A stretch of 64,000 bases of DNA, taken from contig VMFR01000002.1 in NCBI GenBank assembly GCA_007376135.1, positions 92,870-156,869 of the forward strand. The letters are read 5' to 3'. Position 1 is the first letter of the stretch. Every line of letters begins with the position of its first letter. Positions 8,065 through 54,193 of the stretch are shown one piece after another. Position numbers and translations under genes: made by a program. The notes under the pieces were generated by a model. The model saw nothing but the letters and a program-made list of their open reading frames with translations. It ran no database searches and was not told the DNA's origin. This DNA is from Parcubacteria group bacterium Gr01-1014_31. Its GTDB lineage: Bacteria > Patescibacteriota > Patescibacteriia > Buchananbacterales > GWA2-38-13.

Positions 8065-8847
8065 CTATTTCACGTACTGGTCGATGGTCGTTTTAACCTG
8101 CTCGAACGGCTGCGCACCGGAGATAATGCGGGTTTCGCCGCTGCGGGTGAGGAGTACCGTACCCGGGGTGCCGGTCACGCCGGCCTGCTGGCCTTCGGTC
8201 ATATCCTGCTGGACCTTCTGGGCGTACTTGCCGCTGTCCAGGCACGACTTGAACTTGGCCTCGTTCAAACCGATCTCCTTGGCTAACGGCACCAAGTCAG
8301 CTAACGGAAACCCCGTACCATTCGAAGTCGTGCGCTCGAACATGGTATCAAGGTATTTCCAGAACGCGACATTGCCGCCCAGCTCACCCGCGCACTCGGA
8401 GGCTTCCGCTTCCTTCTGCGCGTTGGCGTGGAACGAGAGCGGGAAATGGCGGTATACCCAGGCGACCTTGGTGCCGTAGGTCTGCACGACCTGCTCCATC
8501 GTCGGATGGAACCGTTTGCAGAATGGGCACTCGATGTCGGAGTACTCGATGAGGAAGATCTCGGCCTTAGAGAAATCACCCTTGATGTGGTCGGTCTTGG
8601 AAACCGGCTTGACCTGGCCGGCCGTGGGCTCGGTCGGGTCGTTGGCCGACGGCAACTGCGCCCCGGCGACCTGGCCGCCCGTCGACGGCTTGGCCGCGAC
8701 CACGTCGTCATCGCCGCCGCCCAACCCTTGGCCCTTCAGCACCAAGGGCAGCGTGATGACAAACCCGATGGCCATCACGGCCAGGATGCCACCGACAAAG
8801 CCGGACCAGAACGCCGACTTCGGAGGCAGATTATTGATCACCTGCAT
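8065..8847 (-). CDS. DsbA/BdbD-family thiol-disulfide oxidoreductase, membrane-anchored
   Basis: 260 aa. N-terminal TM, Gly/Asp-rich linker, thioredoxin-fold domain with CPFC active site. Confidence 0.75.
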   Translation of the reverse strand: MQVINNLPPKSAFWSGFVGGILAVMAIGFVITLPLVLKGQGLGGGDDDVVAAKPSTGGQVAGAQLPSANDPTEPTAGQVKPVSKTDHIKGDFSKAEIFLIEYSDIECPFCKRFHPTMEQVVQTYGTKVAWVYRHFPLSFHANAQKEAEASECAGELGGNVAFWKYLDTMFERTTSNGTGFPLADLVPLAKEIGLNEAKFKSCLDSGKYAQKVQQDMTEGQQAGVTGTPGTVLLTRSGETRIISGAQPFEQVKTTIDQYVK

Positions 8848-11942: not shown

Positions 11943-12821
11943 ATGCCCTCTGTCCGCAAGCTCGTCATCCCCGTGGCGGGTCTCGGCACCCGCTTTCTCC
12001 CGGCCACCAAAGCGCAACCCAAGGAAATGCTGCCGCTCCTGGACAAGCCCATCATCCAGTACATCGTGGAAGAGGCAGTGCGCTCCGGCATCACCGACAT
12101 CATCCTGGTGACCGGCAAGACCAAGCGCGCCATTGAGGACCACTTCGACCGCGACGAGGAACTGGTCAACTACCTCAAGACCCACAACAAGGCCGAGGCG
12201 TCCGAGAATATCAGAAAGATATCCGAGATGGCCAATTTCATCTTCGTGCGCCAGAAGGGGCCGTACGGCAACGGCACGCCCGTGCTCAACGCGCGGCACA
12301 TCATCGGCGACGAGCCGTTCGCGGTGGTCTGGGGCGACGACATTTGGCGCTGCCCGACGGACCCGCACGTGGCGCAGCTGGTGTCCGTCTACGAGCGCTA
12401 CCACGACCCGGTCATCACGCTGAAGGAAACCGACGACGAGGGCGCGCGCCGCTACGGCATCGTGGAAGGCCCCGAGGTGCAGCCGGGCGTGTACCAGCTT
12501 AACCAGATCATGGAAAAGCCCGGGCCGGACAAAACGCGCAGCCGCCTGGCGTCGCACGGCGGGTACGTTTTCACCCCCGACATCTTTGACGCGCTGGCCG
12601 AGACCGCGCTGGGCCGCGACGGCGAGCTGTGGCTGGTGGACGCCATCGCCAACCTCCTGAAGCGCCGCACCATCTACGGCAAGGTCATCGAAGGCGAATT
12701 CTACGACACCGGCAACAAGATCGGCTGGCTGAAGGCCAACGTCGAGTTCGCGTTGCGCGATGCCCACGTCGGCCCGGCATTTGAAGCCCATCTGAAACGC
12801 CGCATATGCGATACCAAGTAA
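11943..12821 (+). CDS. galU: UTP--glucose-1-phosphate uridylyltransferase
   Basis: 292 aa. VIPVAGLGTRFLPATKAQPKEMLP N-terminal nucleotidyltransferase motif and overall GalU architecture. Confidence 0.9.
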   Translation: MPSVRKLVIPVAGLGTRFLPATKAQPKEMLPLLDKPIIQYIVEEAVRSGITDIILVTGKTKRAIEDHFDRDEELVNYLKTHNKAEASENIRKISEMANFIFVRQKGPYGNGTPVLNARHIIGDEPFAVVWGDDIWRCPTDPHVAQLVSVYERYHDPVITLKETDDEGARRYGIVEGPEVQPGVYQLNQIMEKPGPDKTRSRLASHGGYVFTPDIFDALAETALGRDGELWLVDAIANLLKRRTIYGKVIEGEFYDTGNKIGWLKANVEFALRDAHVGPAFEAHLKRRICDTK

Positions 12822-14188
12822 ACCGCCGCCTGCTGCCGCTGTTGCTGCTCGGCACCCTCGTGCTGACCGCCGGATTCCGCTGCACGCTGGTGCCCCAGAA
12901 AGTCCGCGAGCTGCTCAAGCCCGTGACCCTGGACTGGTGGCGCGTCTACGATTCTCCCAGCGACCTTTCCGACATCATCAACAGCTACCGCGCCATCCAC
13001 CCCAACATCACCATCAACGTCCGCACGCTGCGCTACGAGGAGTTCCGCGACAAGCTGCTGGAAGCCTACGCCAAGCGGCAGGAGCCTGACATCATCTCCA
13101 TGCACGTGGGGTGGCTGCGCTATTACCTGCGCCAGGGGTTCATCCAACCGATGCCCGCCAGCGTCACGATGGCGTACCAAAAGACCCAAAAAACTTTGGG
13201 CGTGAAAGAAGAGGTATTGATCGAACAGCGCACCACCACGATGCCGTCCCTGGGCCAGCTGCAGGCGCAGTACCTGGATACGGTGGTGCGGGACATCATG
13301 ATCAGCGGCAAGGTCTACGGGTTCCCGCTGTCGGTGGACACGCTGGCGCTGTTCTACAACCGCGCGCTGTTCAACGCCGCCGGTATTCCCCTGCCGCCCG
13401 CCAGTTGGAACGAATTCCAGGAAATGGCGGCCAAGCTCACCCTGCGGGATGCCGACGGCAATATCCAGCAGGCCGGCGCGGCGCTGGGCACGGGCGCCAA
13501 CGTCCGCCGCGGCGCGGACGTGCTGTCCCTCCTGCTGCTGCAGAACGGCACCTACGTCATGACCGAGAGCGGCGCGGCGCAATTTCACATCGGCCCCAGC
13601 GGCCGCGACGCCTACCACCCGGGCCTGGAAGCGCTGCGCTTCTACACCGATTTTGCCAACCCGACCAAGGAAGTCTACAGCTGGAACGCGCAGCAGCCCG
13701 ATTCCATCTCGGCGTTCGCCGCCAGCCGCGTGGCCATGACCTTTGGCTACAGCTTTGACCTGGCCGAGATCAAGGCCGCCAGCCGCGGCCGGCTGAACAT
13801 GGGCGTGGTGCCCGTGCCCCAGCTCCCGGGCGTGAACGCCAACGTCGCCAGCTATTGGGTGGAAACGGTGTCCAGCCGCACCAACAACCCCAGCGAAGCC
13901 TGGGATTTCCTCCTCCACGCCGCCAAGGCCGAGGTGGTCAAAACCTATCTGGCCAAAACGGGCAAGCCCACGGCCCTGCGCGCGCTGGTCAACGACCAGA
14001 AGGCCTCCGACCAGCTGGGCCCGTTCGCCTCGCAGCTCCTGACGGCCCGCACCTGGTACTTCGGCTATGACATGGACACGGGCGAGAACGTCCTGCGCGA
14101 ACTCATCGAGGCCCTCCCGGTCAGCGCCGAGACGCCCGCGCGGCTGATGACCCAGGCGGCGCGCCGGCTGGAAGAAACCTCACGCTAA
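12806..14188 (+). CDS. ABC-transporter solute-binding protein (family 1, sugar-type), secreted/lipoprotein
   Basis: 460 aa. Signal peptide with Cys (LTAGFRCT). SBP_bac_1-like size and pattern. Overlaps the galU stop by 16 nt. Confidence 0.7.
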   Translation: MRYQVNRRLLPLLLLGTLVLTAGFRCTLVPQKVRELLKPVTLDWWRVYDSPSDLSDIINSYRAIHPNITINVRTLRYEEFRDKLLEAYAKRQEPDIISMHVGWLRYYLRQGFIQPMPASVTMAYQKTQKTLGVKEEVLIEQRTTTMPSLGQLQAQYLDTVVRDIMISGKVYGFPLSVDTLALFYNRALFNAAGIPLPPASWNEFQEMAAKLTLRDADGNIQQAGAALGTGANVRRGADVLSLLLLQNGTYVMTESGAAQFHIGPSGRDAYHPGLEALRFYTDFANPTKEVYSWNAQQPDSISAFAASRVAMTFGYSFDLAEIKAASRGRLNMGVVPVPQLPGVNANVASYWVETVSSRTNNPSEAWDFLLHAAKAEVVKTYLAKTGKPTALRALVNDQKASDQLGPFASQLLTARTWYFGYDMDTGENVLRELIEALPVSAETPARLMTQAARRLEETSR

Positions 14189-14197
14189 CGCAACCCC

Positions 14198-14869
14198 ATG
14201 CGTTCATCCCGTTCCCTCATCCTGGCTGCCGCGCTCATGGCTGCGGCGTTCTTCGCCGCGCCGGACGCCGCCAATGCCCAGATGCACTGCTGCTGCGACG
14301 TGGAGTTCGAACGCTGCGCCCCTTCCCCCATCATGCAGGGACAGCCGGGCGTTGCCGGATACCCGTGTCCGCCAGTCGGCGACGAAACGCTGACCCTCTG
14401 GCGCGCCTCCAACGACCCGGCGTACCAGACGTGCTCAGCCTGGGTCAACCCGAACGCCGCTGAATTCCGTACCGCCGCCGAGCAGGAGGCGCGCGAACGC
14501 AGCTGGCTGAAGCTGGTCATCGGCACCGAACTCATCCCCGATGCCTGTCGCACCGGCGATGCGAAGGGCTGCACGCTGTCCCACCTGCTGCAGGTCCTTG
14601 CCAACGTCGCGCGGGCGATGCTGGCGTTGCTGGGCAGCGCGGCGTTCGCGATGTTCGTCTACGGCGGGGTGGTCTTTCTGACCTCCCAGGGCAACCAGGA
14701 GCGGGTCACTACGGGCCGGCGCATCCTCACCAATGCCGTATTGGGCATTCTGGTGGTGCTGGTATCCTGGACGGCGGTCAACTTCGTAGTGGTCGCCCTC
14801 AGCCAAGGCCGGGGCGGATTTGGCCAAATGGCCAACATCTTTGGCAATCAATGGAACCGCGGTCCATAA
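14198..14869 (+). CDS. VirB2/TrbC-like pilin family protein (T4SS-pilin-like) with Cys-rich N-terminal extension; paralog 1 of 9
   Basis: 223 aa. Signal peptide ending ANAQ, a roughly 110-aa domain with 10 Cys (QMHCCCDVEFERC...), then the shared C-terminal hairpin ...FVYGGVVFLTSQGNQERVTTGRRILTNAVLGILVVLVSW. This aligns with the GG(F/Y)xWMTAxGNEE..KAK..I..A.IGL block of the following genes. Confidence 0.6.
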   Translation: MRSSRSLILAAALMAAAFFAAPDAANAQMHCCCDVEFERCAPSPIMQGQPGVAGYPCPPVGDETLTLWRASNDPAYQTCSAWVNPNAAEFRTAAEQEARERSWLKLVIGTELIPDACRTGDAKGCTLSHLLQVLANVARAMLALLGSAAFAMFVYGGVVFLTSQGNQERVTTGRRILTNAVLGILVVLVSWTAVNFVVVALSQGRGGFGQMANIFGNQWNRGP

Positions 14870-14895
14870 GGTGTGGATAACCGGTTTAAAATTTG

Positions 14896-14924
14896 TTGAC
14901 AGGTAGTGAAAAACCTTGTATAAT
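14896..14924 (+). promoter_or_regulatory. consensus sigma70-type promoter (TTGACA-17-TATAAT) for pilin paralog 2
   Basis: TTGACA at 14896-14901, exactly 17-nt spacer, TATAAT at 14919-14924. About 105 nt upstream of ATG 15030, which carries a strong SD (GGAAGGGGGTGA). Confidence 0.6.
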
Positions 14925-15029
14925 TACTGTGTTTTCCTTTGCATTTTGCTTGAAACATAGCAGAATAATGCGGCTGGAACCGGGCGGGTGACCGCTTGGC
15001 GCCGGCAGCACTCGGAAGGGGGTGAAACA

Positions 15030-15395
15030 ATGAAAAAAATTACTACAGGGATTGCTACGGCCGCGGGGCTGATCGCAGCACTGCCGGTCTTCGCCCAGCT
15101 CCCGGCGACGGTTAACCAGGGGTTAGCCTACTCGACGATCGTCGGCTGGGGTACCCAGGACCTTCGTACGACCATCATGCTCGTGATCAACATCATCATG
15201 GGCTTCCTGGGAATTATCGCCGTTATCATCATTCTCACCGGTGGATTCAAGTGGATGACCGCCGGCGGCAACGAGGAGAAGGTAGCGGAGTCCAAGAAGC
15301 TGATCATCGCTGGTATCGTTGGTTTGGCAATTATCTTTGGCGCCTACGCGATCGCGTCGTTCGTCATCAGTTCGCTGGTGAACGCCACGACCTAG
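15030..15395 (+). CDS. VirB2/TrbC-like pilin (T4SS-pilin family), probable major subunit; paralog 2
   Basis: 121 aa. Signal peptide ...ALPVFAQ, short mature N-terminus, TM1 IMGFLGIIAVIIILTGGFKWMTAGGNEEKVAESKKLIIAGIVGLAIIFGAYAIASFVI (TM2). Start moved to the internal MKK with a good SD. Own promoter and terminator. Confidence 0.7.
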   Translation: MKKITTGIATAAGLIAALPVFAQLPATVNQGLAYSTIVGWGTQDLRTTIMLVINIIMGFLGIIAVIIILTGGFKWMTAGGNEEKVAESKKLIIAGIVGLAIIFGAYAIASFVISSLVNATT

Positions 15396-15420
15396 TTCGC
15401 AAGACTCCACAGAGGCAAAG

Positions 15421-15445
15421 GGCCCCGCTCGGCGGGGTCTTTTGT
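15421..15445 (+). terminator. rho-independent terminator after pilin paralog 2
   Basis: GGCCCCGCTCGGCGGGGTC hairpin followed by TTTTGTT. Confidence 0.5.
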
Positions 15446-15481
15446 TACGCCCGGCCGGTGGCGTTCGGGCCGCTGCTGCGA

Positions 15482-15487
15482 TATAAT
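15482..15487 (+). promoter_or_regulatory. candidate -10 element (TATAAT) for the pilin 3-8 operon
   Basis: GCTGCGATATAATGG lies 20 nt upstream of ATG 15508. No good -35 was found, so support is weak. Confidence 0.3.
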
Positions 15488-15507
15488 GGGTTCATCACTT
15501 TTTCCCC

Positions 15508-15903
15508 ATGCGCCGCCGATCTGCCGCCATTGTTCTGACCCTCCTGCTGGGTGTTGCGCTGGCGACGCCGATTTCTGCGGCGTTGGCCCAGGGTGACGAC
15601 TACGGCCTGAACGAAACCTATACCGCCGCCACCGGGGAGCAACCGCCCGCGAACCCCGACCCCCTGCCTCAAACCCTTGGGCTCATCATCAACTGGACGC
15701 TCGGGCTGCTGGGCTTTGTTTTCCTGATGCTCATGATCTGGGCCGGCATCGGCTGGATGACGGCCGGCGGCAACGAGGAGAAGGTGACGAAAGCGAAAAC
15801 GATGATCAACGCTGCCATCGCCGGTATGGTCGTGGTCTTCATTTCCTACGCGCTGGCCGACGCTATCGTTGCCGCGCTGTCGGCGGCGTCCAATACCGGC
15901 TAG
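15508..15903 (+). CDS. VirB2/TrbC-like pilin family protein; paralog 3
   Basis: 131 aa. Signal peptide ...AALAQ. Conserved LMLMIWAGIGWMTAGGNEEKVTKAKTMINAAIAGMVVVFISYALA. The 30-nt core is nearly identical to paralog 2. Confidence 0.7.
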   Translation: MRRRSAAIVLTLLLGVALATPISAALAQGDDYGLNETYTAATGEQPPANPDPLPQTLGLIINWTLGLLGFVFLMLMIWAGIGWMTAGGNEEKVTKAKTMINAAIAGMVVVFISYALADAIVAALSAASNTG

Positions 15904-15911
15904 CTCTCCCT

Positions 15912-16319
15912 ATGCGCCCTCCCCGGCAACTCATTGCCCACACCGCCGCCGGCTTGCTGGTGTTCCCCGGCGCCGCCTTGGCCCAGAACGAATATCGCGG
16001 CATCGGCAAGGTCATCAACAAAGCGATGCGCGACACGGCGCTGTTCGCGGGGTTCATCCCCGAGAGCGGCCAGCCGCGCAACTTCATGCAGATCATGGGC
16101 GCCTACACCAACGGCATCATCACTTTTCTCGGCCTCATTTTCCTGGTGCTCATCATCTGGGCCGGCTTCAAGTGGATGACGGCCGCCGGCAATGAAGACC
16201 AGGTCACCAAGGCGCGCGGCTACATCAAGAATGCCGCCATCGGGCTGACCATCATCCTGGTGGCGCGGATGATCACCTACCTGCTGCTGGAGATCATCCA
16301 GCCCGCCGTCACGCCATAG
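15912..16319 (+). CDS. VirB2/TrbC-like pilin family protein; paralog 4
   Basis: 135 aa. ...AALAQ signal. LVLIIWAGFKWMTAAGNEDQVTKARGYIKNAAIGLTIILVARMITY. 8-nt gap from paralog 3, no SD. Confidence 0.7.
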   Translation: MRPPRQLIAHTAAGLLVFPGAALAQNEYRGIGKVINKAMRDTALFAGFIPESGQPRNFMQIMGAYTNGIITFLGLIFLVLIIWAGFKWMTAAGNEDQVTKARGYIKNAAIGLTIILVARMITYLLLEIIQPAVTP

Positions 16320-16322
16320 CCT

Positions 16323-16727
16323 ATGCACGCAAAAATCCCCTCGCTTCCCCGCTGGCTGGCTGCCGCCGTGGCGCTGGCGCCAAGCGCGGCGCTGGCACAA
16401 ACGACCCGCAGCGCGGGCGGGCTGTTCGCTAACATCCGCTCCAACATTGAAACATCGGGTATCATGCCGGGCACGGCCACCGACGCACAGCAGGTCATCG
16501 GTGGCATCATCACCGGCGTCATCGGGCTGCTGGGCGTCATTTTCTTCATCCTCATTCTCTACGGCGGGTACCTGTGGATGACGGCGCGCGGCAATGAGCA
16601 GCAGATAGAAAAAGCCAAGGACATCATCAAATCCTCCAGCATCGGGCTGGCGGTCGTGCTGGGCGCCTACCTCATCACGTTCATCGTGGTGCAGCTGCTC
16701 ATCAGCCAGACGCTAACGTCGCTGTAG
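16323..16727 (+). CDS. VirB2/TrbC-like pilin family protein; paralog 5
   Basis: 134 aa. ...AALAQ signal. ILILYGGYLWMTARGNEQQIEKAKDIIKSSSIGLAVVLGAYLITF. 3-nt gap from paralog 4. Confidence 0.7.
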   Translation: MHAKIPSLPRWLAAAVALAPSAALAQTTRSAGGLFANIRSNIETSGIMPGTATDAQQVIGGIITGVIGLLGVIFFILILYGGYLWMTARGNEQQIEKAKDIIKSSSIGLAVVLGAYLITFIVVQLLISQTLTSL

Positions 16728-16731
16728 ACCT

Positions 16732-17148
16732 ATGCGCCGTAATTTCTCTACCTGGGCGTGGACGGCGGCGGGAATCGCAGCGGGCTTGCCCATGCCGGTG
16801 CTGGCGCAGACGCGCAACACTATTATGGGCCGCCTCATCAACACGGCGTCCATGTTTGGCCCGTTCCAAACCATCGACAATGAGCCGGGCGCAGGACTGC
16901 GGCAGGCGGCGCGTATCATCGGCCTTATCATCGGCAGCTTGCTCGCATTCTTGGGCATCGTGTTCATGCTCCTCATGATAACGTCGGGCATCCGTTGGAT
17001 GACGGCGCGCGGCAATGAGACGGAAATTGAAAAAGCCAAAGAAACCATCAAGAGCGCCGCCATCGGGCTGCTGGTGGTCGTGCTCTCCTACGCCTTTGTG
17101 ACCCTCATCAGCCGGATGGTGGTAGACACCGGCCTGCTACGCGGATAG
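16732..17148 (+). CDS. VirB2/TrbC-like pilin family protein; paralog 6
   Basis: 138 aa. ...PVLAQ signal. LLMITSGIRWMTARGNETEIEKAKETIKSAAIGLLVVVLSYAFVTL. Confidence 0.7.
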   Translation: MRRNFSTWAWTAAGIAAGLPMPVLAQTRNTIMGRLINTASMFGPFQTIDNEPGAGLRQAARIIGLIIGSLLAFLGIVFMLLMITSGIRWMTARGNETEIEKAKETIKSAAIGLLVVVLSYAFVTLISRMVVDTGLLRG

Positions 17149-17159
17149 TTTTTCTCCCT

Positions 17160-17543
17160 ATGTCGCATCGCTTTGCTTCGTGGACGAAAGGGCTGGCGGC
17201 CGCTCTGGCGCTCTTGCCCTACCGCGTGCTGGCGCAGGCCCCGCCGCTGTTCGGGCCGGGCAGCCTGGTGAACGAAACCTGCGAAGGCGCCGGGTTCAAC
17301 TGCAGCGAGCGCGACGAGACGTTCTTTGCCGAGGCGCTGGGCTCCGTCGTGTTCGCGCTGCTGTCGTTCACCGGCCTGGTATTCACCGCGCTCATCCTGT
17401 ACGGCGGGTATCACTGGATGCTGGCGCGCGGCAACGAGTCCGAGATCGACAAAGCCAAGTCCATCATCCGTTCGGCCATCATCGGGCTGGTCGTCACCCT
17501 GGCGTCCTACTCGGTGTGGATCGCCATCTCCTACTTTATCTAA
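17160..17543 (+). CDS. VirB2/TrbC-like pilin family protein; paralog 7
   Basis: 127 aa. ...RVLAQ signal. Mature N-terminus has CEGAGFNC. ALILYGGYHWMLARGNESEIDKAKSIIRSAIIGLVVTLASY. Confidence 0.7.
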   Translation: MSHRFASWTKGLAAALALLPYRVLAQAPPLFGPGSLVNETCEGAGFNCSERDETFFAEALGSVVFALLSFTGLVFTALILYGGYHWMLARGNESEIDKAKSIIRSAIIGLVVTLASYSVWIAISYFI

Positions 17544-17548
17544 CCACG

Positions 17549-17986
17549 ATGCGCCGCTTGACCTCCCGCGTGCTTCAAATCTTGGCCCCGCTGGTCGTAT
17601 TGTTCGCCACGGCGGCGCAGGCGCAAACCGGGCGCTTGCTGGGTGGCGGCCTGAGCGACCGGATGCGCGGCATCGCGGGGGTGTTTGCCCGCAACGTCGG
17701 GCTGCAGGAAACGCCGCTGTCGTTCGTCGTCGCGCGGGTCATCTTCATGTTCCTGGCCATCCTCGGCATCATTTTCGTCGGCCTCATCACCTACGCGGGC
17801 TACCACTGGCTGACCGCGCGCGGCAACGAGGAAAAGGTGCGCAAAGCCCAGGATACCCTGCGGCAGGCGACCTGGGGGCTCATCATTGTGCTGGCCGCCT
17901 ACTCCATTTCGTACTTCATCCTGGCGTACCTGCTGGGCGAATTCGGCACCGCCCCGCCGCCCCCGCTGACTGGCGGCGCAACATAA
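17549..17986 (+). CDS. VirB2/TrbC-like pilin family protein; paralog 8
   Basis: 145 aa from MRRLTSRVLQ... with ...AAQAQ signal. GLITYAGYHWLTARGNEEKVRKAQDTLRQATWGLIIVLAAYSISY. Pro-rich C-tail. The long track ORF 17180..17986 is an out-of-frame overlap of paralog 7; the real start is ATG 17549. Confidence 0.65.
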   Translation: MRRLTSRVLQILAPLVVLFATAAQAQTGRLLGGGLSDRMRGIAGVFARNVGLQETPLSFVVARVIFMFLAILGIIFVGLITYAGYHWLTARGNEEKVRKAQDTLRQATWGLIIVLAAYSISYFILAYLLGEFGTAPPPPLTGGAT

Positions 17987-18007
17987 TACAACCCGGCAAA
18001 AAGAAGA

Positions 18008-18040
18008 ACGGCGCAAAAGCATTGCCTTTGCGCCGTTTTC
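18008..18040. terminator. bidirectional terminator between the pilin operon and the convergent lipoprotein gene
   Basis: GGCGCAAAAGCATTGCCTTTGCGCC hairpin with T-run on the plus strand and A-run (T-run on the minus strand). Confidence 0.5.
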
Positions 18041-18066
18041 GAATCGAAGAACGATCCGCTTGCCCA

Positions 18067-18648
18067 CTACTTGGGCTTTACGCACGCCGCCCACTTCACG
18101 GTGCGCACCACGGTGGTTTCGTTGACCGTCTCGAAAACCACGTTCCCGCTGGCAGTCTCGATGAACCGGAAAAGATATTTATACCCCTCCGGTAACGAAC
18201 AGGCGACCGTGGTCGGCTCCACCTTGGGATTCGGCGCAGGAGCGAGGTTGACCACTTCCACGGTTGGACCGTTCAAGTTGATCCGACCTCGGTGATCGAC
18301 CTGGAAAACCTGGCAGACCAGGGCAAGACCGGTGAAATTACTGATGCCCCCATCCACCAAAATCATGGTGGGCTCCTCAGGCTTGGTGGCCTTGATCTGC
18401 TCGAGCTTGCGCTCGGCCAAATCGACGTCGCCCTCCTTGGCGTTGATGACCGCAGTTCGCGCGGCCGTCAGTTGGGAATTGTACTCCATCAACTCCGCCG
18501 CACGCATCGCCGTGATCGGGTCCGTTTCGCCAAACCACGCGTGAACCACGATCTTGGGATCGCGCTTGTCCTCCAACAACACATCGGAGGAACGGCAGCC
18601 GAACGCAGCGGCGAGCGGGAGGACAACCAACATCATCCGGTACGACAT
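18067..18648 (-). CDS. hypothetical lipoprotein
   Basis: 193 aa from MSYRMMLVVLPLAAAFGC (lipobox-like AFGC). No family recognised. The longer ORF to 18783 lacks a signal-peptide context. ATG complement at 18646-18648. Confidence 0.45.
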   Translation of the reverse strand: MSYRMMLVVLPLAAAFGCRSSDVLLEDKRDPKIVVHAWFGETDPITAMRAAELMEYNSQLTAARTAVINAKEGDVDLAERKLEQIKATKPEEPTMILVDGGISNFTGLALVCQVFQVDHRGRINLNGPTVEVVNLAPAPNPKVEPTTVACSLPEGYKYLFRFIETASGNVVFETVNETTVVRTVKWAACVKPK

Positions 18649-18915
18649 GTAAAGACTCCTGCCAGAAACTGGCGTTGTGGGACGCATTGTCCAAGGTTCA
18701 ACCGTATTAAGCCCCGGTGAAGGCTCCACAGCAGTGGAGAAAAGCCAAACATTGGCTTTTGACTTAAGATGTAATGATACCACAAATTGAAACTATTGTC
18801 AATATAATTAGCAATATTTGGCTTATTTTAGATGATTATAATCAATACTATATTACGCCCGCCAATGCTAATTCCCCTTGTTTCAGCCAACCCGGGAATC
18901 CTGTATAATGAACGT

Positions 18916-19025
18916 GGTATGCCCGGTAGTACAATGGATATACTGGGCAGAAGAGCGGTGCGGCAGTAATTAATTACGCTGGAACGCGAACACCAGTAAA
19001 CAACCATTGTCCTGCCGGGTATGCC
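18916..19025 (+). promoter_or_regulatory. conserved inverted-repeat 5' leader element (copy C); 3' arm contains the start codon of pilin paralog 9
   Basis: 5' arm GGTATGCCCGGTAGTACAATGG (18916-18937) and 3' arm CCATTGTCCTGCCGGGTATGCC (19004-19025) form a 22-bp stem (with G-U pairs) around an AT-rich core. An extended -10 TGTATAAT (18902-18909) is 6 nt upstream. The same architecture occurs at 55591-55691 and 60110-60224. Confidence 0.5.
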
Positions 19026-19431
19026 CATCGCAGAGCGCGTCGCCGTCAAACTCGCCCAGCTCTCCCCCGATATTCGGGAGTCGCAAGGGCCGCTGTGGCG
19101 CGCGATAAAGAACCAGTACACCCCGTTCAACCTGTTCTTCGGCCCGCCCTCCGACCCGCGCGTCGTGGCGGCGCTGGTCATCAAGGGGTTCATGTCGCTG
19201 CTGGGCATCTTGTTTTTGCTCTACGTGGTGTACGCGGGGTTCATGTGGATGACGGCCAACGGCGACGAGGAAAGGATCCGCAAGGCGAAATCCACCATCA
19301 CCACCGGCGCATTCGGGGTGCTGGTCATCCTGGCGGCGTACTCCATCGCCCAGTTCATCACCACGGCGTTCGGCTGCGCGACCGCCACCTACGGCGAGTG
19401 GTGCCTTTTCTTCAACAACCTGACGTGGTAG
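19021..19431 (+). CDS. divergent VirB2/TrbC-like pilin family protein without N-terminal signal peptide; paralog 9
   Basis: 136 aa. The conserved hairpin LLYVVYAGFMWMTANGDEERIRKAKSTITTGAFGVLVILAAYSIA is present, but the N-terminus MPIAERVAVKLAQLSPDIRES is not a signal peptide. C-terminal CATATYGEWC. Confidence 0.55.
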   Translation: MPIAERVAVKLAQLSPDIRESQGPLWRAIKNQYTPFNLFFGPPSDPRVVAALVIKGFMSLLGILFLLYVVYAGFMWMTANGDEERIRKAKSTITTGAFGVLVILAAYSIAQFITTAFGCATATYGEWCLFFNNLTW

Positions 19432-19446
19432 CGCTGCCCCGCATTG

Positions 19447-19477
19447 CGCCCCCGGAACGCTCCGGGGGTATTTTTTT
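19447..19477 (+). terminator. rho-independent terminator after pilin paralog 9
   Basis: CCCCCGGAACGCTCCGGGGG hairpin followed by TATTTTTTTG. Confidence 0.6.
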
Positions 19478-49314: not shown

Positions 49315-50460
49315 CTACTGTTTGATCGGCATCACCAAATAGAGGTAATCGGTCCGTCCGCGGGGTTTGAGCACGCACGGGCTGGCGTTGTCGATCAGGT
49401 GCAGCTCCACCTCCTCGGTTTCGATATTCTGCAGGCCGTCGAGCAGGAACCGGTAGTTCAGGACCGTGCGGTTCTCTTGGCCGGTCACCTCGGCGGCAAT
49501 GCGGGAAGTGTTCTCCCCCAGTTGGGCGTTGGCGGCCGACAAGCTGAGCGAGCGCTGGGTAGGCATAACGGCCAGCGCCACGTCATAAATGCCACTCCGT
49601 GAAAAGAGGCTGGTGGTTTTTGTGGCCTTTGTCAGATCCACGGTCGCGGCGCGCGCCGTAGTGGCGTACTGCTTGGGAATGATCTGCTCATAGTCAGGGT
49701 ACTGGCCCTCGATCACCCGCGAGACGATCTCCACCGTCCCAAGCGTGAAGAGCACCTGGTTTTCCGCCACGAACAGCTCAACCCGATCGACGGTCGCCAA
49801 TGCGGCGGGATCTTTGAAACTCGTGAGAATGCGGAGGAGCTCCTGAAGCGCACGAGCGGGAACGATGACCTTCTGCGGCTTGGTCGGCGCGGTCAGCAGC
49901 CGCACCTTTCTCTCCGCCAGGCGATAGCTGTCGGTCGCCGTCAACGTCAATTGGTTGCCGCTGGTGGTCAGGAGCACGCCATTGATCTCCGGCCGAGTCT
50001 CGCTCATGGAAACGGCGAATATCACCTGGGCAATGGCGGCACGGAGGTCGATAACCGAGCAAGACAGGGTGTTGGTGCGCTCCACGGTGGGAATGAGGGG
50101 AAAATCGGCCGCTGCGATTCCCTTCATCTTCATCTCTGAGCTCCCACCCTTCACAACCATTGACCCCCCGTTCTCGCCACTCGCATTCTCCAGCGCGATT
50201 TCCACGCTATCTTTCGGCAAGAGACTGACGTAATCGGCGAAAAGCTTGGATTGCACCGTGAACGACCCCGGGCGCTCGATCTTCCCTCGCACCTGGCAAC
50301 TGACGCCGATCTCTAAATTGGTCGCGGATAGCTTAATGCCGTTCTCTCCCGCTTCGATCAGCACGTTATTCAACACCGGTAGGTTCGTATTCTTGGCCGC
50401 GACGTGGGCGACGGTCATTAAACCCTGGCTTAAATTTTCTTGAGTAACAACGAATTTCAT
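49315..50460 (-). CDS. dnaN: DNA polymerase III subunit beta (sliding clamp)
   Basis: 381 aa. MKFVVTQENLSQGL...LPVLNNVLIEA N-terminus and three-domain length. Directly downstream of dnaA. Confidence 0.9.
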   Translation of the reverse strand: MKFVVTQENLSQGLMTVAHVAAKNTNLPVLNNVLIEAGENGIKLSATNLEIGVSCQVRGKIERPGSFTVQSKLFADYVSLLPKDSVEIALENASGENGGSMVVKGGSSEMKMKGIAAADFPLIPTVERTNTLSCSVIDLRAAIAQVIFAVSMSETRPEINGVLLTTSGNQLTLTATDSYRLAERKVRLLTAPTKPQKVIVPARALQELLRILTSFKDPAALATVDRVELFVAENQVLFTLGTVEIVSRVIEGQYPDYEQIIPKQYATTARAATVDLTKATKTTSLFSRSGIYDVALAVMPTQRSLSLSAANAQLGENTSRIAAEVTGQENRTVLNYRFLLDGLQNIETEEVELHLIDNASPCVLKPRGRTDYLYLVMPIKQ

Positions 50461-50805
50461 ACGAGGGATAACAGGGGTTTGATAACGGTGATAATTATAT
50501 TGATACTAGGTAGTAATAGTAGTAGGCGGCAGGGATAAGTGGACAAGTGGGAGATTCGACTGTGTGAGTTCGTTTACGGCGAGTTACGATGGGATAAGTC
50601 CGGGATACACGGCGTGGGTTGGCCGTGGATGGATTGGGTATGAATGTCGCGGCGGCGGCTGACGCCGCGTCGGCAGTGCATAGGTCAGTGGACAGTTCCC
50701 AGGTTATCCAACTGAGAGGCGGGGCTTTTACCCCACCTCTTCCCCACGCTGTCCCCGCATCTTCCCCAGTTTCCGGGCCCATGCCGTTGGCACGGCAACG
50801 GCTCG
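50461..50805. other. dnaA-dnaN intergenic region with AT-rich stretch and repeated GGATAA/GATAAC DnaA-box cores (candidate oriC segment)
   Basis: gGGATAACa, tTGATAACg, gGGATAAGt and gGGATAAGt within 140 bp, plus AT-rich GATAATTATATTGATACTAGGTAGTAATAGTAG. No full 9-mer consensus box. Confidence 0.35.
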
Positions 50806-52197
50806 TTAACTGGTGATGTTGGTCATGTTGAAGAGCCGCTGGCGGATGACACCGACGTCTTGCTGGAGTTTCTCGTCCACCTGCAGTTCCCGGCTGATCT
50901 TGAGATACGCGTGCATGGCGGTGGTGTGGTCGCGATTGCCGATTTCGGAGCCGATCGCGGGGTAGGAGCACTTGGTCTCCTCCCGCATCAGATACATGAT
51001 GATCTGCCGCGGCAGCGCCAGGTTCTTTTTCCGGCAGCTGCCCATGATATCCTCGGTTTTTAGGTCAAAATATTCGATCACGGCGGAAATGATCTGCCGC
51101 GGCGTGAGGGATTTTCGGGGGCCGTCGCCGCTGAGCGTTCCCAGCATCTTTTTCACCCCTTCCAAGGTGATGGGGCTGCGGTCCAGCTGGTGGAACGCGA
51201 CGATCCGGTTCAGCGCTCCTTCCAACTCGCGGACGTTGTTGGCGACCGACGTCGCTACATAGTGCAGAATTTCCCGCTCCATGGCGAAGGCGCGTTCCCG
51301 GCACTTGGTCTCAAGGATCGCCAGCCGTGTTTCCAGGTCCGGGGTGCCGACGTCGGCGATCATCCCCCATTCAAAGCGCGATACCAGCCGGTGTTCGAGC
51401 GCCGGGATGGCCTTTGGCGGTCGGTCCGAGCTGATGACGATCTGTTTATTATTCTGGTGCAGCGCGTTGAAGGTATGGAAGAACTCTTCTTGCGTGCCTT
51501 CTTTCCCGGCGAGGAACTGGATATCGTCGACCAGGAGGACGTCGACCGAGCGGTAAACGTTCTTGAAGCGCGACGTGACGTTGGAGGAAATAGAGCGGAT
51601 GAAATCGTTGATGAATTTTTCAGAGCTGACGTACAATACTTTGGCGCCCCCCTGCCGGCGCGCCAGATGGTTGCCGACGGCCTGCAGCAGGTGCGTTTTG
51701 CCCAAACCGACGCCGCCGTAGATGAACAATGGGTTATACACGCGACCGGGTTTGTTGCAGACGGCCAAACAGGCGGCATGTGCCAGCTCATTGGCCTTGC
51801 CGATGACGAAATTTTCAAAGGTGTAGCGCTGGTTGAGCCCGAGTTCGTTCGGGGTTGCCTCGCCCCCGTCGTCGGCCGCAGTCGGTGTTGCAACCGTTAC
51901 CGCCGCCGTGATCTCAACGACCGGTGCGGCGGCGCGGGGTCCGGTTTCAACCTTGTAAATAACCTCGCGCACGCGGTTTTCCGAGACTTTTTGCAGGGCG
52001 CGCAAAATGAACGCGTGATATTTCTTTTCAAACCACGCTTTGGTGAACGTATTGGGAACGCCGACAATGACCCGCTCGCCTTCGGCGGAGGCGATGAAGG
52101 TGTTTTTGAACCAGGTCATGAAATTGGCCCGGCTCAAGGTCAACTCCAATTCCCCCAGCGTGGCCTGCCAGAGTTGCTGATGATCGATCATACTCAA
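50806..52197 (-). CDS. dnaA: chromosomal replication initiator protein DnaA
   Basis: 463 aa. AAA+ Walker A GGVGLGKTHLL, sensor motifs and C-terminal DNA-binding domain (...AIGSEIGNRDHTTAMHA). Confidence 0.9.
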   Translation of the reverse strand: MSMIDHQQLWQATLGELELTLSRANFMTWFKNTFIASAEGERVIVGVPNTFTKAWFEKKYHAFILRALQKVSENRVREVIYKVETGPRAAAPVVEITAAVTVATPTAADDGGEATPNELGLNQRYTFENFVIGKANELAHAACLAVCNKPGRVYNPLFIYGGVGLGKTHLLQAVGNHLARRQGGAKVLYVSSEKFINDFIRSISSNVTSRFKNVYRSVDVLLVDDIQFLAGKEGTQEEFFHTFNALHQNNKQIVISSDRPPKAIPALEHRLVSRFEWGMIADVGTPDLETRLAILETKCRERAFAMEREILHYVATSVANNVRELEGALNRIVAFHQLDRSPITLEGVKKMLGTLSGDGPRKSLTPRQIISAVIEYFDLKTEDIMGSCRKKNLALPRQIIMYLMREETKCSYPAIGSEIGNRDHTTAMHAYLKISRELQVDEKLQQDVGVIRQRLFNMTNITS

Positions 52198-52583
52198 ATG
52201 TGGGACGCGGCGGCTGCCACCAAGGAATGGCGGCAGGCCGGTGAGATGATGGCTGGGGTATCAGCGACGAGTGCCGGCTGACGACAGCCCGTCGCGATAA
52301 AATTTTTTTTTCAGCTCCTGTTTTTTCAACTTGGACACCCGGAACAGTGATTTCTTTTTTGAGCTCCCCCATAGTATACCACGAGGGTTGGCGTGTCAAA
52401 GCTGACATGCCAACTGTGCATTTGTGTACAAGCTGTGGAGTGCATGTGCATATTGTAAATCCGCCCGACATTTGAAGCCGCGATGATTGACGGTTTGCCA
52501 TTCCCCTGCTAGGATAGGTGTACCTTGAGCGCTCGGCGGACCTCCGCCCCGCGCGCAAACGAATTCAATCCTCCTTTTTGCTT
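52198..52583. other. dnaA-rpmH divergent intergenic region: candidate oriC/DUE
   Basis: Classical oriC location. A/T-rich run (AAAATTTTTTTTTCAGCTCCTGTTTTTTCAACTT...TTTCTTTTTTGAG) and degenerate DnaA boxes (TGTGTACAA, TGTGCATAT, 7/9 each). Confidence 0.4.
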
Positions 52584-52721
52584 ATGCCGAAACGGACGTA
52601 CCAACCGAAACGCCGCCGCCGCCAGCGCGTGCACGGATTCCGCCGCCGCATGCGGAGCAGCAATGGCCGCAACGTGCTCAAGCGCCGACGGACCCGGGGG
52701 CGCCATCGCTTGACGGTATAG
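52584..52721 (+). CDS. rpmH: 50S ribosomal protein L34
   Basis: 45 aa. [25 protein letters not shown] is near-universal L34 sequence. Start at the internal ATG of the 67-aa ORF. Confidence 0.85.
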
Positions 52722-52757
52722 TTCTGACGGGGCATTCGCCCCGCTGGTGCCGTCGCT

Positions 52758-53102
52758 ATGTTGTCCCAACACTACCGCCTGACGAAGCGTGGAGAGTTGA
52801 TGGCCGTGCTCCGGCACGGCGCTATGGTGCGGGGCGGCGGTTTGACGGTACGCGTCCTGCCGACCGGCCGCCAGGGCAGCCGTTTTGCTTTCGTTGTTTC
52901 CAATAAAGTCTCCAAGCACGCCGTGCAGCGCAACCGTTTGCGTCGGCAGTTGCGAGAGCTGGTGCGTGCCATGCTGCCGGAGGTGGCGGGCGGTTACGAT
53001 GTGGTGGTCACGGTGCAGCCGGGACGTCCGGTGCGTACTACCGTTGCGCTCAAGGATTCACTGGCCATTGCCCTGCGCCGCGTTCGTCTCCTTTCCCTAT
53101 GA
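52758..53102 (+). CDS. rnpA: ribonuclease P protein component
   Basis: 114 aa, basic. RNR motif region SKHAVQRNRLRRQLRE. Follows rpmH. Confidence 0.8.
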   Translation: MLSQHYRLTKRGELMAVLRHGAMVRGGGLTVRVLPTGRQGSRFAFVVSNKVSKHAVQRNRLRRQLRELVRAMLPEVAGGYDVVVTVQPGRPVRTTVALKDSLAIALRRVRLLSL

Positions 53103-53353
53103 ACCGATTTTCCCGGCGTTTGGCCTCAGCCATGGCTGCGGGTATCCGGCTCTACCAGCGGACGTTTTCCATGGACCACGGATTACTGAGCCGCATCATT
53201 CCCGGCGGACGCTGTCGGTACTGGCCGAGCTGTTCGGAGTACGGACGCCAGGCGTTCCGGCGTTACGGCCTGCGTCGCGGGCTGTTGCTCACATTGTGGC
53301 GCATCGGGCGATGTAATCCCTTCAGCGCCGGCGGCGTTGATCCACTTCCCTAG
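53099..53353 (+). CDS. yidD: membrane protein insertion efficiency factor YidD
   Basis: 84 aa. YQRTFSMDHGLLSRIIPGGRCRYWPSCSEYGRQAF...GRCNPFSAGGVDP matches YidD/haemolytic domain. Overlaps the rnpA stop by 4 nt. Confidence 0.8.
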   Translation: MNRFSRRLASAMAAGIRLYQRTFSMDHGLLSRIIPGGRCRYWPSCSEYGRQAFRRYGLRRGLLLTLWRIGRCNPFSAGGVDPLP

Positions 53354-53446
53354 TTTGTAGGAGTTAGCTTGTGGCTGGTAGGCAATCGTTGCCGGCCCGC
53401 CCTACAAGCTACCAGCTAAAAGCTACAAGCCTTACCTCCACGCATC

Positions 53447-54193
53447 ATGGGCCAACTCTTCCACACCGTGCTCTACCAGCCGATCTTCAATTTGCTGGTT
53501 ATTTTGTATAACCTCGTCCCCGGCCACGACCTGGGCGTTAGCATCCTCCTGTTGACCGTCCTGCTGAAAGTGCTGCTCTACCCGATCGCGGCGCGGTCCA
53601 TCCGCATCCAGCACCAGATGCAGCGGCTGCAGCCCCAGATCTCTGCCCTGCAGCAGAAATTCAAAGGGCAGAAGGAGCAGCTGTCGCGCGAGCTGATGGA
53701 GTTGTATAAGAAAGAAAAGGTGAACCCGTTCTCGTCGTGCCTACCATTGCTCATCCAGCTCCCGTTCCTCATCGCCGTGTACCGCGTGTTCATCGACGGT
53801 CTGAAACCCGGCCCCGTGGAAGGATTGTATTCGTTCGTTACTAACCCTGGCCCGTTGAATCCCGTGGCGTTCGGCTTTTTGGATCTGGCCGACGCCCGGA
53901 ACTGGGTGCTGGCGATCCTCGCCGGCGGCGCGCAATACTGGCAAGCCAAGATGCTGCAGACGAAAAAACCGCCGGTGCACGGGGCGGGCACCAAGGATGA
54001 AGATATGGCCGCCGCCATGAGCAAGCAGATGGTGTATATGATGCCGGTGATGACCGTGTTCATTAGCGCCAGCCTGCCGGCTGGCCTTGCGCTGTACTGG
54101 CTCGCGACGACCTTGTTGAGCGTCGCCCAGCAGCACCTGATGTTGCGTCCCAAGTCTGCCTTGCCGCCCGCGACCCCGGCTTCTCAGGTTTAG
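53447..54193 (+). CDS. yidC: membrane protein insertase YidC (short, Gram-positive-like form)
   Basis: 248 aa. PIFNLLVILY...LLLTVLLKVLLYPI...QPQISALQQKFKG...CLPLLIQLPFLIAVYRV are YidC/Oxa1 core motifs. Confidence 0.85.
   Translation: MGQLFHTVLYQPIFNLLVILYNLVPGHDLGVSILLLTVLLKVLLYPIAARSIRIQHQMQRLQPQISALQQKFKGQKEQLSRELMELYKKEKVNPFSSCLPLLIQLPFLIAVYRVFIDGLKPGPVEGLYSFVTNPGPLNPVAFGFLDLADARNWVLAILAGGAQYWQAKMLQTKKPPVHGAGTKDEDMAAAMSKQMVYMMPVMTVFISASLPAGLALYWLATTLLSVAQQHLMLRPKSALPPATPASQV

Follow-up and report, generated by a model that had tools for sequence, protein, structure and literature searches.

Does a tandem series of nine paralogous pilin genes supply alternatives to be exchanged for one another, or the parts of a single structure? 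The question is raised by a 64,000-nt stretch of contig VMFR01000002.1 (positions 92,870-156,869; hereafter the window, to which all coordinates refer) in the metagenome-assembled genome of Parcubacteria group bacterium Gr01-1014_31 (GCA_007376135.1), an ultra-small bacterium from groundwater that belongs to the Patescibacteria (class ABY1), where nine plus-strand pilin open reading frames (ORFs) of 121-223 amino acids (aa), designated P1 to P9, span positions 14198-19431. The reading that we prefer, with a probability of roughly 0.55, is that these genes encode nine non-redundant VirB2-like pilins of the membrane, which are co-expressed as a fixed set and belong to a Patescibacteria surface apparatus related to type IV secretion systems (T4SS). 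In this set, P2 would be the major subunit, P3-P8 accessory subunits, and P1 an exposed, variable subunit, and assembly would be driven by a VirB4 encoded elsewhere. The nine genes are listed here with their bit scores against the Pfam family T4SS_pilin (PF18895) and, for P3 to P8, the identity of the ortholog in a sister strain (GCA_030648715.1, locus L005), which carries the same array:

14198..14869, plus strand: P1, a long pilin of 223 aa (33.7 bits)
15030..15395, plus strand: P2, 121 aa, with the shortest mature N-terminus (35.5 bits)
15508..15903, plus strand: P3, 131 aa, opening the tight P3-P8 block (29.2 bits; sister-strain ortholog 89% identical)
15912..16319, plus strand: P4, 135 aa (39.3 bits; 88% identical)
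16323..16727, plus strand: P5, 134 aa (36.5 bits; 91% identical)
16732..17148, plus strand: P6, 138 aa (34.8 bits; 90% identical)
17160..17543, plus strand: P7, 127 aa, with C-x6-C in the mature N-terminus (27.1 bits; 93% identical)
17549..17986, plus strand: P8, 145 aa, with a Pro-rich C-terminal tail (27.7 bits with the correct start; 92% identical)
19021..19431, plus strand: P9, 136 aa, leaderless, with C-x8-C in the C-terminal tail (30.0 bits)

The original prediction, made from the DNA sequence, described nine genes, eight of them contiguous and one placed after a single interloper. The ORFs agree with this layout, as does a hidden Markov model (HMM) built from the nine-protein alignment, which picked out these nine, with E-values of 1e-37 to 1e-49, when run on the window's ORFs in all six frames, and detected no tenth family member there. 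The protein sequences agree exactly with NCBI entries in the range TSC76490-TSC76523, from the same assembly. The gaps from P3 through P8 are 8, 3, 4, 11, and 5 nt, as predicted (3-11 nt), compared to 160 nt between P1 and P2, 112 nt between P2 and P3, and 1034 nt between P8 and P9, where one minus-strand gene lies inside the gap. A repeat finder returned a 120-nt core in eight copies, spaced by ≈400-500 nt within P2-P8 and 62-75% identical to the reference copy.

By inspection, the leaders of P1-P8 start with basic residues, continue with a stretch rich in Ala and Leu, carry a Pro near position -6, and end in the form A-x-A-Q (AQAQ in P8, VFAQ in P2). The claim that every gene has such a signal peptide fits these eight signal-peptide-like leaders and fails for P9, which has none; its start at 19021 is the first after an in-frame stop, and an identical leaderless N-terminus occurs in other strains. 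Likewise, the conserved hairpin motif GG(F/Y)xWMTAxGNEE...KAK...IGL, said to be present throughout, is intact in P2-P9 and degenerate in P1. The mature N-terminal segments (≈24-105 aa) do not align among the paralogs, consistent with the prediction, and full-length identity to P1 is 20-25%. By contrast, the cores had been called nearly identical in nucleotide sequence, and this does not hold: core identity between paralogs is 43-63% for DNA and 21-47% for amino acids, and no exact run within the core alignment exceeds 24 nt. The sole near-identical DNA is a stretch of ≈32 nt in P2 and P3 that encodes WMTAGGNEEKV; the 32-mer quoted originally is exact at 15754 and has one mismatch at 15252, where none would be expected by chance.

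All nine proteins reached the gathering score of PF18895 (26.6 bits), at 27.1-39.3 bits, in a Pfam search that bears out the predicted placement with VirB2/TrbC-like pilins. Judged by these profile scores, the T4SS_pilin assignment is correct for every paralog. Seven of the nine also matched NF045849 (Mbov_0395 pilin-like) nearly end to end over its 80-position profile (24.0-36.1 bits; E 4e-9 to 2e-5), under the cut-off of 40 bits, and this search gave no hit for P1 or P7. Many P2 homologs bear precomputed hits to the TrbC/VIRB2 family (PF04956). The family is large, in that 82,618 clusters at 50% identity match the nine-paralog profile with E <=0.001.

Hydropathy profiles reveal two hydrophobic helices, joined in P2-P9 by a loop with 2-4 Lys/Arg; the P1 loop was not captured by the scan. 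The AlphaFold model of P2 places helices at residues 43-77 and 82-120 with a predicted local distance difference test score (pLDDT) of 86-92, and profiles and model together agree with the two-helix hairpin that had been predicted. Cysteines are confined to the predicted outside N- and C-terminal segments. Hydropathy, the basic loop, and the placement of cysteines are consistent with a topology in which the two termini lie outside and the loop lies inside.

The N-terminal segments had been described as hypervariable. They differ among paralogs, and each is conserved between strains, with the exception of the P1 outer domain described below. Orthologs of P2-P8 in the sister strain are 88-98% identical, at a synonymous divergence (dS) of ≈0.2-0.6 for P3-P8. 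For the pooled mature N-termini of P2-P8, the ratio of nonsynonymous to synonymous divergence (dN/dS) is 0.09 at dS ≈0.43, compared to 0.37 for the signal peptides, which indicates that the mature N-termini are under purifying selection. To collect related loci, GTDB species representatives were scanned with a P2-family alignment, which yielded 80 loci, nearly all in Patescibacteria. The order P1-P9, including the last gene past the interloper, is kept in two of these, L009 (P2 88% identical) and L015 (P2 64% identical). At L009, each position has its counterpart as clear best match; at L015, the order holds, with small score margins for most assignments. In many related loci, too, the final pilin gene is set off by ≈1 kb. 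This pattern of divergence indicates that the paralogs arose by old subfunctionalisation and not by ongoing variation.

The sequence signals around P2 set this gene apart from the rest of the array. The putative expression signals are:

14896..14924, plus strand: sigma-70 consensus promoter TTGACA-17-TATAAT upstream of P2 (12 of 12 positions matched)
≈15014-15024, plus strand: Shine-Dalgarno site GGAAGGGGGTG, following the P2 promoter
15415..15448, plus strand: intrinsic-terminator-like hairpin GGGCCCCGC-TCG-GCGGGGTC with a T-run, from RNA folding and a hairpin scan (-17.4 kcal/mol)
18007..18037, no strand assigned: bidirectional terminator-like hairpin of 14 pairs between P8 and the convergent lipoprotein gene, closing P3-P8
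18774..18854, no strand assigned: AT-rich divergent promoter region, with TTGACA-17-TATCAT on the minus strand (11 of 12 positions, with TG) facing the lipoprotein gene
19448-19469: a terminator of its own after P9

The hairpin at 15415..15448, which a generic scanner did not list, is GC-rich and lies directly 3' of P2, and the divergent region at 18774..18854 also holds a weaker plus-strand promoter match toward P9. P2 is the only array member with a canonical purine-rich Shine-Dalgarno site. It is also the most conserved paralog, at 49-98% identity over the 80 loci compared to ≈23-63% for the others beyond the two closest genomes, and its dS to the sister strain (0.09) is the lowest among the paralogs. 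Because of its perfect promoter, Shine-Dalgarno site, and terminator and its highest conservation, P2 is probably the major subunit, and the other paralogs would be accessory. The median spacer after P2-like genes in related arrays is 112 nt, compared to 17 nt after other members. Judged by the layout, P3-P8 appear to form one tight operon, and their 3-11-nt spacing points to co-expression rather than to the choice of one gene.

P2-like pilins also occur singly, which, like the long spacers that set them apart in related arrays, favors P2 as the major subunit. The source genome has at least one extra copy, P0058 (70% identical), which adjoins metK on another contig (L007, 6842-7228), and the sister genome has three solitary P2-like loci (L010, L013, and L016). 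A protein with a Wzy_C domain (O-antigen-ligase-like) recurs in 8 loci and in one of them (L011, 7165-8517) adjoins a solitary P2-like gene, a recurrence that hints at pilin glycosylation. As to the start contexts of the other paralogs (14170-17560), a pyrimidine-rich tract ending in CCCC or CCCT lies just 5' of the ATG of P1, P3, P4, and P7; P5 and P6 have only CCT or ACCT, and P8 has CCACG.

Variation between strains is concentrated elsewhere. A blastn comparison with the sister strain gave two sharply bounded non-aligning blocks, 14300-14499 and ≈17993-18644, amid DNA that is 88-94% identical. The first lies within P1 and the second corresponds approximately to the whole gene of the interloper:

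14300..14499, plus strand: hypervariable cassette in P1 (outer-domain residues ≈35-101); blastn aligns its flanks with the sister strain (94% and 89% identical) and leaves the cassette itself unaligned
18067..18648, minus strand: the interloper, a predicted lipoprotein of 193 aa (MSYRMMLVVLPLAAAFGC...), conserved in position and hypervariable in sequence

P1 opens with a signal peptide, after which the mature N-terminus carries a CCC motif. Its Cys-rich outer domain spans ≈100 aa, the hairpin is degenerate, and the C-terminal tail, GRGGFG..ANIFGNQWNRGP, is conserved; a P1-type gene leads the array in most related loci. Its orthologs retain the leader, CC(C/Y), several cysteines, SW..G.E(L/I)IP..CR.G..GC, the hairpin, and the tail, and the intervening 60-70 residues are unrelated. 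In a third strain, the P1 allele is of the window type, with substitutions and an indel mainly inside the variable segment, so that the cassette has at least two allele classes among three strains. The sharply bounded hypervariable cassette suggests that P1 is probably the exposed, host-contacting subunit. A gene for a DsbA-like thioredoxin lies on the minus strand at 8065-8847, 5 kb upstream of the array; its product could form the disulfides implied by the outside Cys pairs of P1, P7, and P9.

The DNA of the lipoprotein gene does not align with that of the sister strain, where the flanks are 89% identical, and the protein had no Pfam or NCBIfam match. A tblastn search with it against all related loci returned nothing below E 0.15. 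A value of 37% "identity" to the sister-strain protein was set aside as the product of a forced global alignment, which is not meaningful. Nevertheless, a small minus-strand gene occupies the interloper position in L005, L009, L015, and L029, down to ≈55% P2 identity, and a lipoprotein-type signal ending in Cys is present in the interlopers of the window, L005, L009, and L015. Among the array genes and the interloper, only the P1 outer domain and the lipoprotein are hypervariable between strains.

The arrays of related genomes place the locus among its kin. The number of family ORFs per cluster over the 80 loci has a median of 8 and a maximum of 14, with 9 or more in 31 loci; these sizes are lower bounds, since many related loci end at contig edges. 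A survey by Quinonero-Coronel et al. (2025, PMC12102498) reported 441 VirB2-like arrays of 2-11 genes in 383 Patescibacteria assemblies, mainly in Microgenomatia and Saccharimonadia, either in tandem or split by one non-pilin gene, with a mean amino acid identity of 25% (maximum 54%). Thus, the expansion that had been called unusual is not so: nine genes are an ordinary array size. Table S1 of the survey includes GCA_007376135.1 (GTDB class ABY1, 1.34 Mb, 1210 coding sequences) with the entry "Presence of VirB4: Yes" (PMC12102498). At L039 (GCA_000992085.1), 8 clustered family ORFs found with the HMM compare with one VirB2 hit among the survey matches listed, a hit made through the MPF-T (mating-pair formation class T) VirB2 profile and not near virB4 (PMC12102498). 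Because of this difference, the survey probably under-counts ABY1 arrays.

What accompanies the array in these genomes are two genes that directly precede P1:

11943..12821, plus strand: galU, UTP-glucose-1-phosphate uridylyltransferase (Pfam NTP_transferase; the NCBI name agrees), overlapping the next gene by 16 nt
12806..14188, plus strand: a gene for a solute-binding-protein (SBP)-like protein (SBP_bac_1 / SBP_bac_8) of 460 aa with an N-terminal hydrophobic anchor (Pfam E 7e-28), ending 9 nt before P1

An SBP-like gene lies immediately upstream on the same strand in 43 of the 48 arrays with enough upstream sequence, and galU precedes it in 39. By comparison, one of 12 loci with a solitary pilin or few pilins has an SBP-like gene upstream, and solitary loci lack galU as well. 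Genes for an ABC permease or ATPase are absent from the vicinity of the SBP-like gene. Conserved neighbours in the 80 loci were SBP-like genes (57), galU (51), and DUF2079 (14, and also the window); clustering of neighbours further returned PNPase, GT28, Wzy_C, Polysacc_synt, NYN, and S15. The 2025 survey does not mention the galU/SBP arrangement (PMC12102498).

The observations reported here are of sequence features, and every step of the following mechanism is inferred from them. In the pilus-like apparatus that we favor, eight of the proteins would be exported by Sec, probably with cleavage between the last Ala and the Gln of A-x-A-Q, and would reside in the membrane as hairpins, the two termini outside and the conserved charged loop, GNEE-K-x-KAK, in the cytoplasm. 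A VirB4-type ATPase, encoded elsewhere in the genome, would draw the pilins from the membrane into one shared filament or conduit. P2 would be the abundant major subunit, and P3-P8 would be lower-abundance accessory subunits made from one tight operon. P1, translated beside the SBP-like protein, would present its Cys-rich, strain-variable outer domain, probably to the host, and P9 would be a leaderless variant with its own promoter.

Several results weigh against this assignment. Of the nine proteins, P2 gave a near-full-length match to PF04956 (profile positions 16-97 of 98; E 0.0027) that scored 18.3 bits, below the gathering score of 27.9 bits, so that the suggested TrbC/VirB2 relationship was recovered in extent and not in score; P9 likewise fell short, at 13.3 bits, and the other seven paralogs had no match in this search. 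Profile comparison by hhalign of the P2 family with Agrobacterium tumefaciens VirB2 (sequence checked against PDB 8cue) gave an in-register alignment, pairing GTQDLRTTI... with GGTDPATMV... and GFKWM with GISWM, at a P of 0.0013 and a weak probability of 18%; the profile of all nine paralogs reached 3.5%. With the P2 family as query, the PDB yielded no sequence match even at E 10, and fold searches return only generic helical hairpins and so cannot test membership. The topology of P9 is uncertain, since this protein has no signal peptide.

The genomic context also argues against it. The original prediction proposed looking for VirB4, VirB6, and VirD4 homologs in the genome; none is present in the 64-kb window or among the neighbours of the 80 related loci, and a Walker-A screen of related-locus ORFs of at least 500 aa, done without Pfam, gave six candidates, none obviously VirB4. 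Instead, galU and the SBP-like gene, not T4SS genes, are the conserved partners of the array. Because no T4SS gene adjoins these arrays, the link to VirB4 rests on homology and on co-occurrence in the genome, the latter from the survey entry for this assembly, by which a VirB4 is encoded elsewhere (PMC12102498). For two ABY1 genomes, Table S3 of the survey has 1-3 VirB2 hits each among the matches listed, all marked "VirB4 proximity: No" (PMC12102498). Finally, reviews credit Patescibacteria only with the potential to elaborate pili, and no VirB2-type pilus has been seen in the phylum.

This context is the main reason to consider that the hairpins do not form a T4SS pilus at all. Working independently of VirB4, they might instead build a hetero-oligomeric ring, channel, or envelope scaffold in the membrane that acts with the SBP-like protein, GalU, and the neighbouring glycosyltransferases to capture nutrients, for instance, or to handle surface glycans. 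The absence of T4SS genes near the array, both here and in the 80 related loci, would follow naturally, as would the 43 SBP-like genes and 39 galU genes upstream of the 48 arrays and the glycosyltransferase-rich cluster of ≈20 kb downstream; such synteny may, however, mean that the genes share an envelope operon without sharing a function. Fusion proteins bear on the same issue. Most of the best-scoring family members in a library of 1.84 billion proteins match in 2 to 17 stretches, and in P0145 (555 aa, 6 hairpin modules) and P0149 (1775 aa, 17 modules), all tandem modules follow one signal peptide, so that subunit-by-subunit extraction from the membrane would be difficult. Such fusions support the co-assembly of different modules in one structure, whether this is a pilus or a ring. 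The best Foldseek match, ATP-synthase subunit c, would suit a ring and is not significant (E 0.26). Against these points, the family is annotated and used as a T4SS pilin, the MPF-T VirB2 profile of CONJScan recognizes P2-like proteins from ABY1 in the survey rows listed, and Microgenomatia arrays are marked close to VirB4 in the rows for GCA_000990335.1 (PMC12102498). Moreover, the homologous array of Saccharibacteria lies inside an essential T4SS cluster. On balance, we regard a device of this kind as possible and rather unlikely. A more specific proposal, that the galU/SBP-like/pilin module of ABY1 and related Patescibacteria builds a heteromeric hairpin filament or ring independent of a T4SS ATPase, with P1 and the SBP-like protein capturing host-derived sugars or attaching to host glycans, is clearly less probable still. 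If it were true, ultra-small bacteria would use these "T4SS pilins" as the building blocks of a new device for uptake or attachment.

The remaining alternatives concern the paralogs themselves. One of them grew out of the original prediction and takes the nine genes as a stock of alternative pilins that gene conversion at the conserved cores diversifies and reshuffles, with antigenic or host-range variation as the result. A conserved core joined to dissimilar outer segments would suit such a repertoire, and P2 and P3 do share the 32-nt stretch with one mismatch. Nevertheless, gene conversion between the cores was rejected, given their DNA identity of 43-63%, exact runs of at most 24 nt, and codon sharing (495 of 841 residues common to paralogs, compared to 415-425 expected from codon usage) that barely exceeds the expectation from codon bias. 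In addition, the repeat finder detected no silent or partial cassettes and no flanking or long repeats, all copies being complete genes. The VirB2 paralogs of Bartonella and Anaplasma have been proposed to provide antigenic variation, and the 2025 survey speculates on adaptation to different hosts (PMC12102498), and the P1 outer domain does differ between strains; yet P2-P8 are 88-98% identical between strains with N-terminal dN/dS of 0.09, the order and identity of all nine genes are kept in distant genomes, and the tight spacing implies co-expression. Thus, we conclude that this reading is largely refuted, and its probability is very low. That one large repetitive protein was mis-called as nine ORFs, or that these are its fragments or pseudogenes, an outcome against which the original prediction had itself warned, has a negligible probability. 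Fused multi-module members of the family do exist elsewhere, as noted above. Here, however, every ORF starts at an ATG of its own, eight carry separate signal-peptide-like leaders, the ORFs end in TAG or TAA stops and lie mostly in different frames, at least three other strains or species show the same gene limits, and independent gene callers give the same genes; frames, stop codons, and separate starts rule out one large protein.

How the fixed set of VirB2-like pilins that we prefer relates to described systems can be seen by comparison. The closest are other Patescibacteria arrays, such as the six-gene array of Ca. Southlakia epibionticum ML1 (PMC10633639), the "Sec-secreted array" of TM7x, and those of the survey (PMC12102498), which come from the same phylum and belong to the same PF18895. 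There as here, the genes are in tandem or have one non-pilin gene between them, with a mean identity of 25% compared to 20-25% here. The S. epibionticum array, unlike the present one, lies inside the T4SS cluster, and its pilin series is essential (Wang et al., 2023, PMC10633639), as repeated in a 2025 review; the present array instead follows galU and the SBP-like gene.

VirB2 (the T-pilin; PDB 8cue/8exh), TrbC, and TraA are likewise made as small precursors with a leader ending in small residues and Gln (...PAAAQ-SAGGG in the PDB sequence of VirB2, A-x-A-Q here), and they have two hydrophobic helices and a short basic loop; P2 aligns in register with VirB2, at the weak probability given above. 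They differ in that P2 scores 18.3 of the 27.9 bits needed, the host here has a single membrane, and nine paralogs replace one. The genes here are also unlinked to virB3, virB4, and virB6, and no pilus has been seen. Mbov_0395 and MMCAP2_0565 of Mycoplasma integrative and conjugative elements (ICEs), represented by NF045849, resemble seven of the paralogs nearly end to end. Each is a single gene inside an ICE, and the scores here (24-36 bits) stay under 40. These matches fit the kinship reported for Patescibacteria T4SS, which are akin to single-membrane conjugation systems of the MPF-FATA class (PMC12102498).

The VirB2 paralogs of Anaplasma phagocytophilum and Bartonella, an analogy cited by the survey (PMC12102498), share tandem amplification and divergence with the present array. 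They have been proposed to serve antigenic variation, whereas P2-P8 are under apparent purifying selection and their order is kept. A preprint entitled "A Novel Pilus System in CPR Bacteria" concerns Ig-fold donor-strand pilins, which are a different system. Some resemblance in organization extends further. Type IV pili and the pseudopili of type II secretion combine one highly expressed major subunit with a conserved operon of diverged minor subunits. The analogy with these sets lies in a shared assembly core with differing exposed parts; fold, family, and assembly machine are unrelated.

A substantial part of bacterial diversity belongs to the Patescibacteria, whose members live attached to the cells of a host, and in the one species that has been genetically tested, the T4SS-like system with its pilin array is essential (PMC10633639). 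The locus brings no new kind of system, since VirB2-like arrays have already been published for the phylum. Its interest lies in the galU/SBP linkage, the inferred split into major and accessory subunits, and the two strain-variable surface cassettes. The arrays look like fixed sets of major and accessory subunits and not like variable repertoires, and those of ABY1 are tied to galU and the SBP-like gene, not to virB4. Because the P1 outer domain and the neighbouring lipoprotein vary between strains, they are candidate host-contact determinants. Together with the apparent under-count of ABY1 arrays in the survey, these points give testable leads for work on cultivable relatives.

The wider surroundings of the array were also catalogued. 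Copper-resistance genes and the DsbA-like gene lie upstream. Downstream are genes for DUF2079, several glycosyltransferases (GT) of the GT-C, GT2, and GT4 types, RuvC, and PBP1A, and toward the replication origin follow dnaN, dnaA, rnpA, and yidC, and then polA and SMC. Directly downstream of the array, the ≈20-kb stretch at 19512-40865 is rich in envelope-glycosylation genes, with DUF2079, DUF6541, two GT-C of the PMT_2 type, an MptA/B-family protein, several GT2, and five GT4; it is broken by genes for RuvC, a YebC-type regulator, and an APH-family kinase. The genes dnaN, dnaA, rnpA, yidD, and yidC occupy 49315-54193, and the cumulative GC skew has its minimum near 50 kb, a combination that marks the replication origin. 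T4SS genes are often found near the replication origin (PMC12102498); the array lies ≈31 kb from dnaA, and no virB4 is present in the origin region. At the other end of the window, positions 1-1450 form an island of low GC content (47% compared to ≈62%) that encodes an IrrE/ImmA-like M78 peptidase (116-619), an XRE-type helix-turn-helix protein (606-971), and a small ORF without an assigned family (1041-1418), and that is probably acquired DNA.

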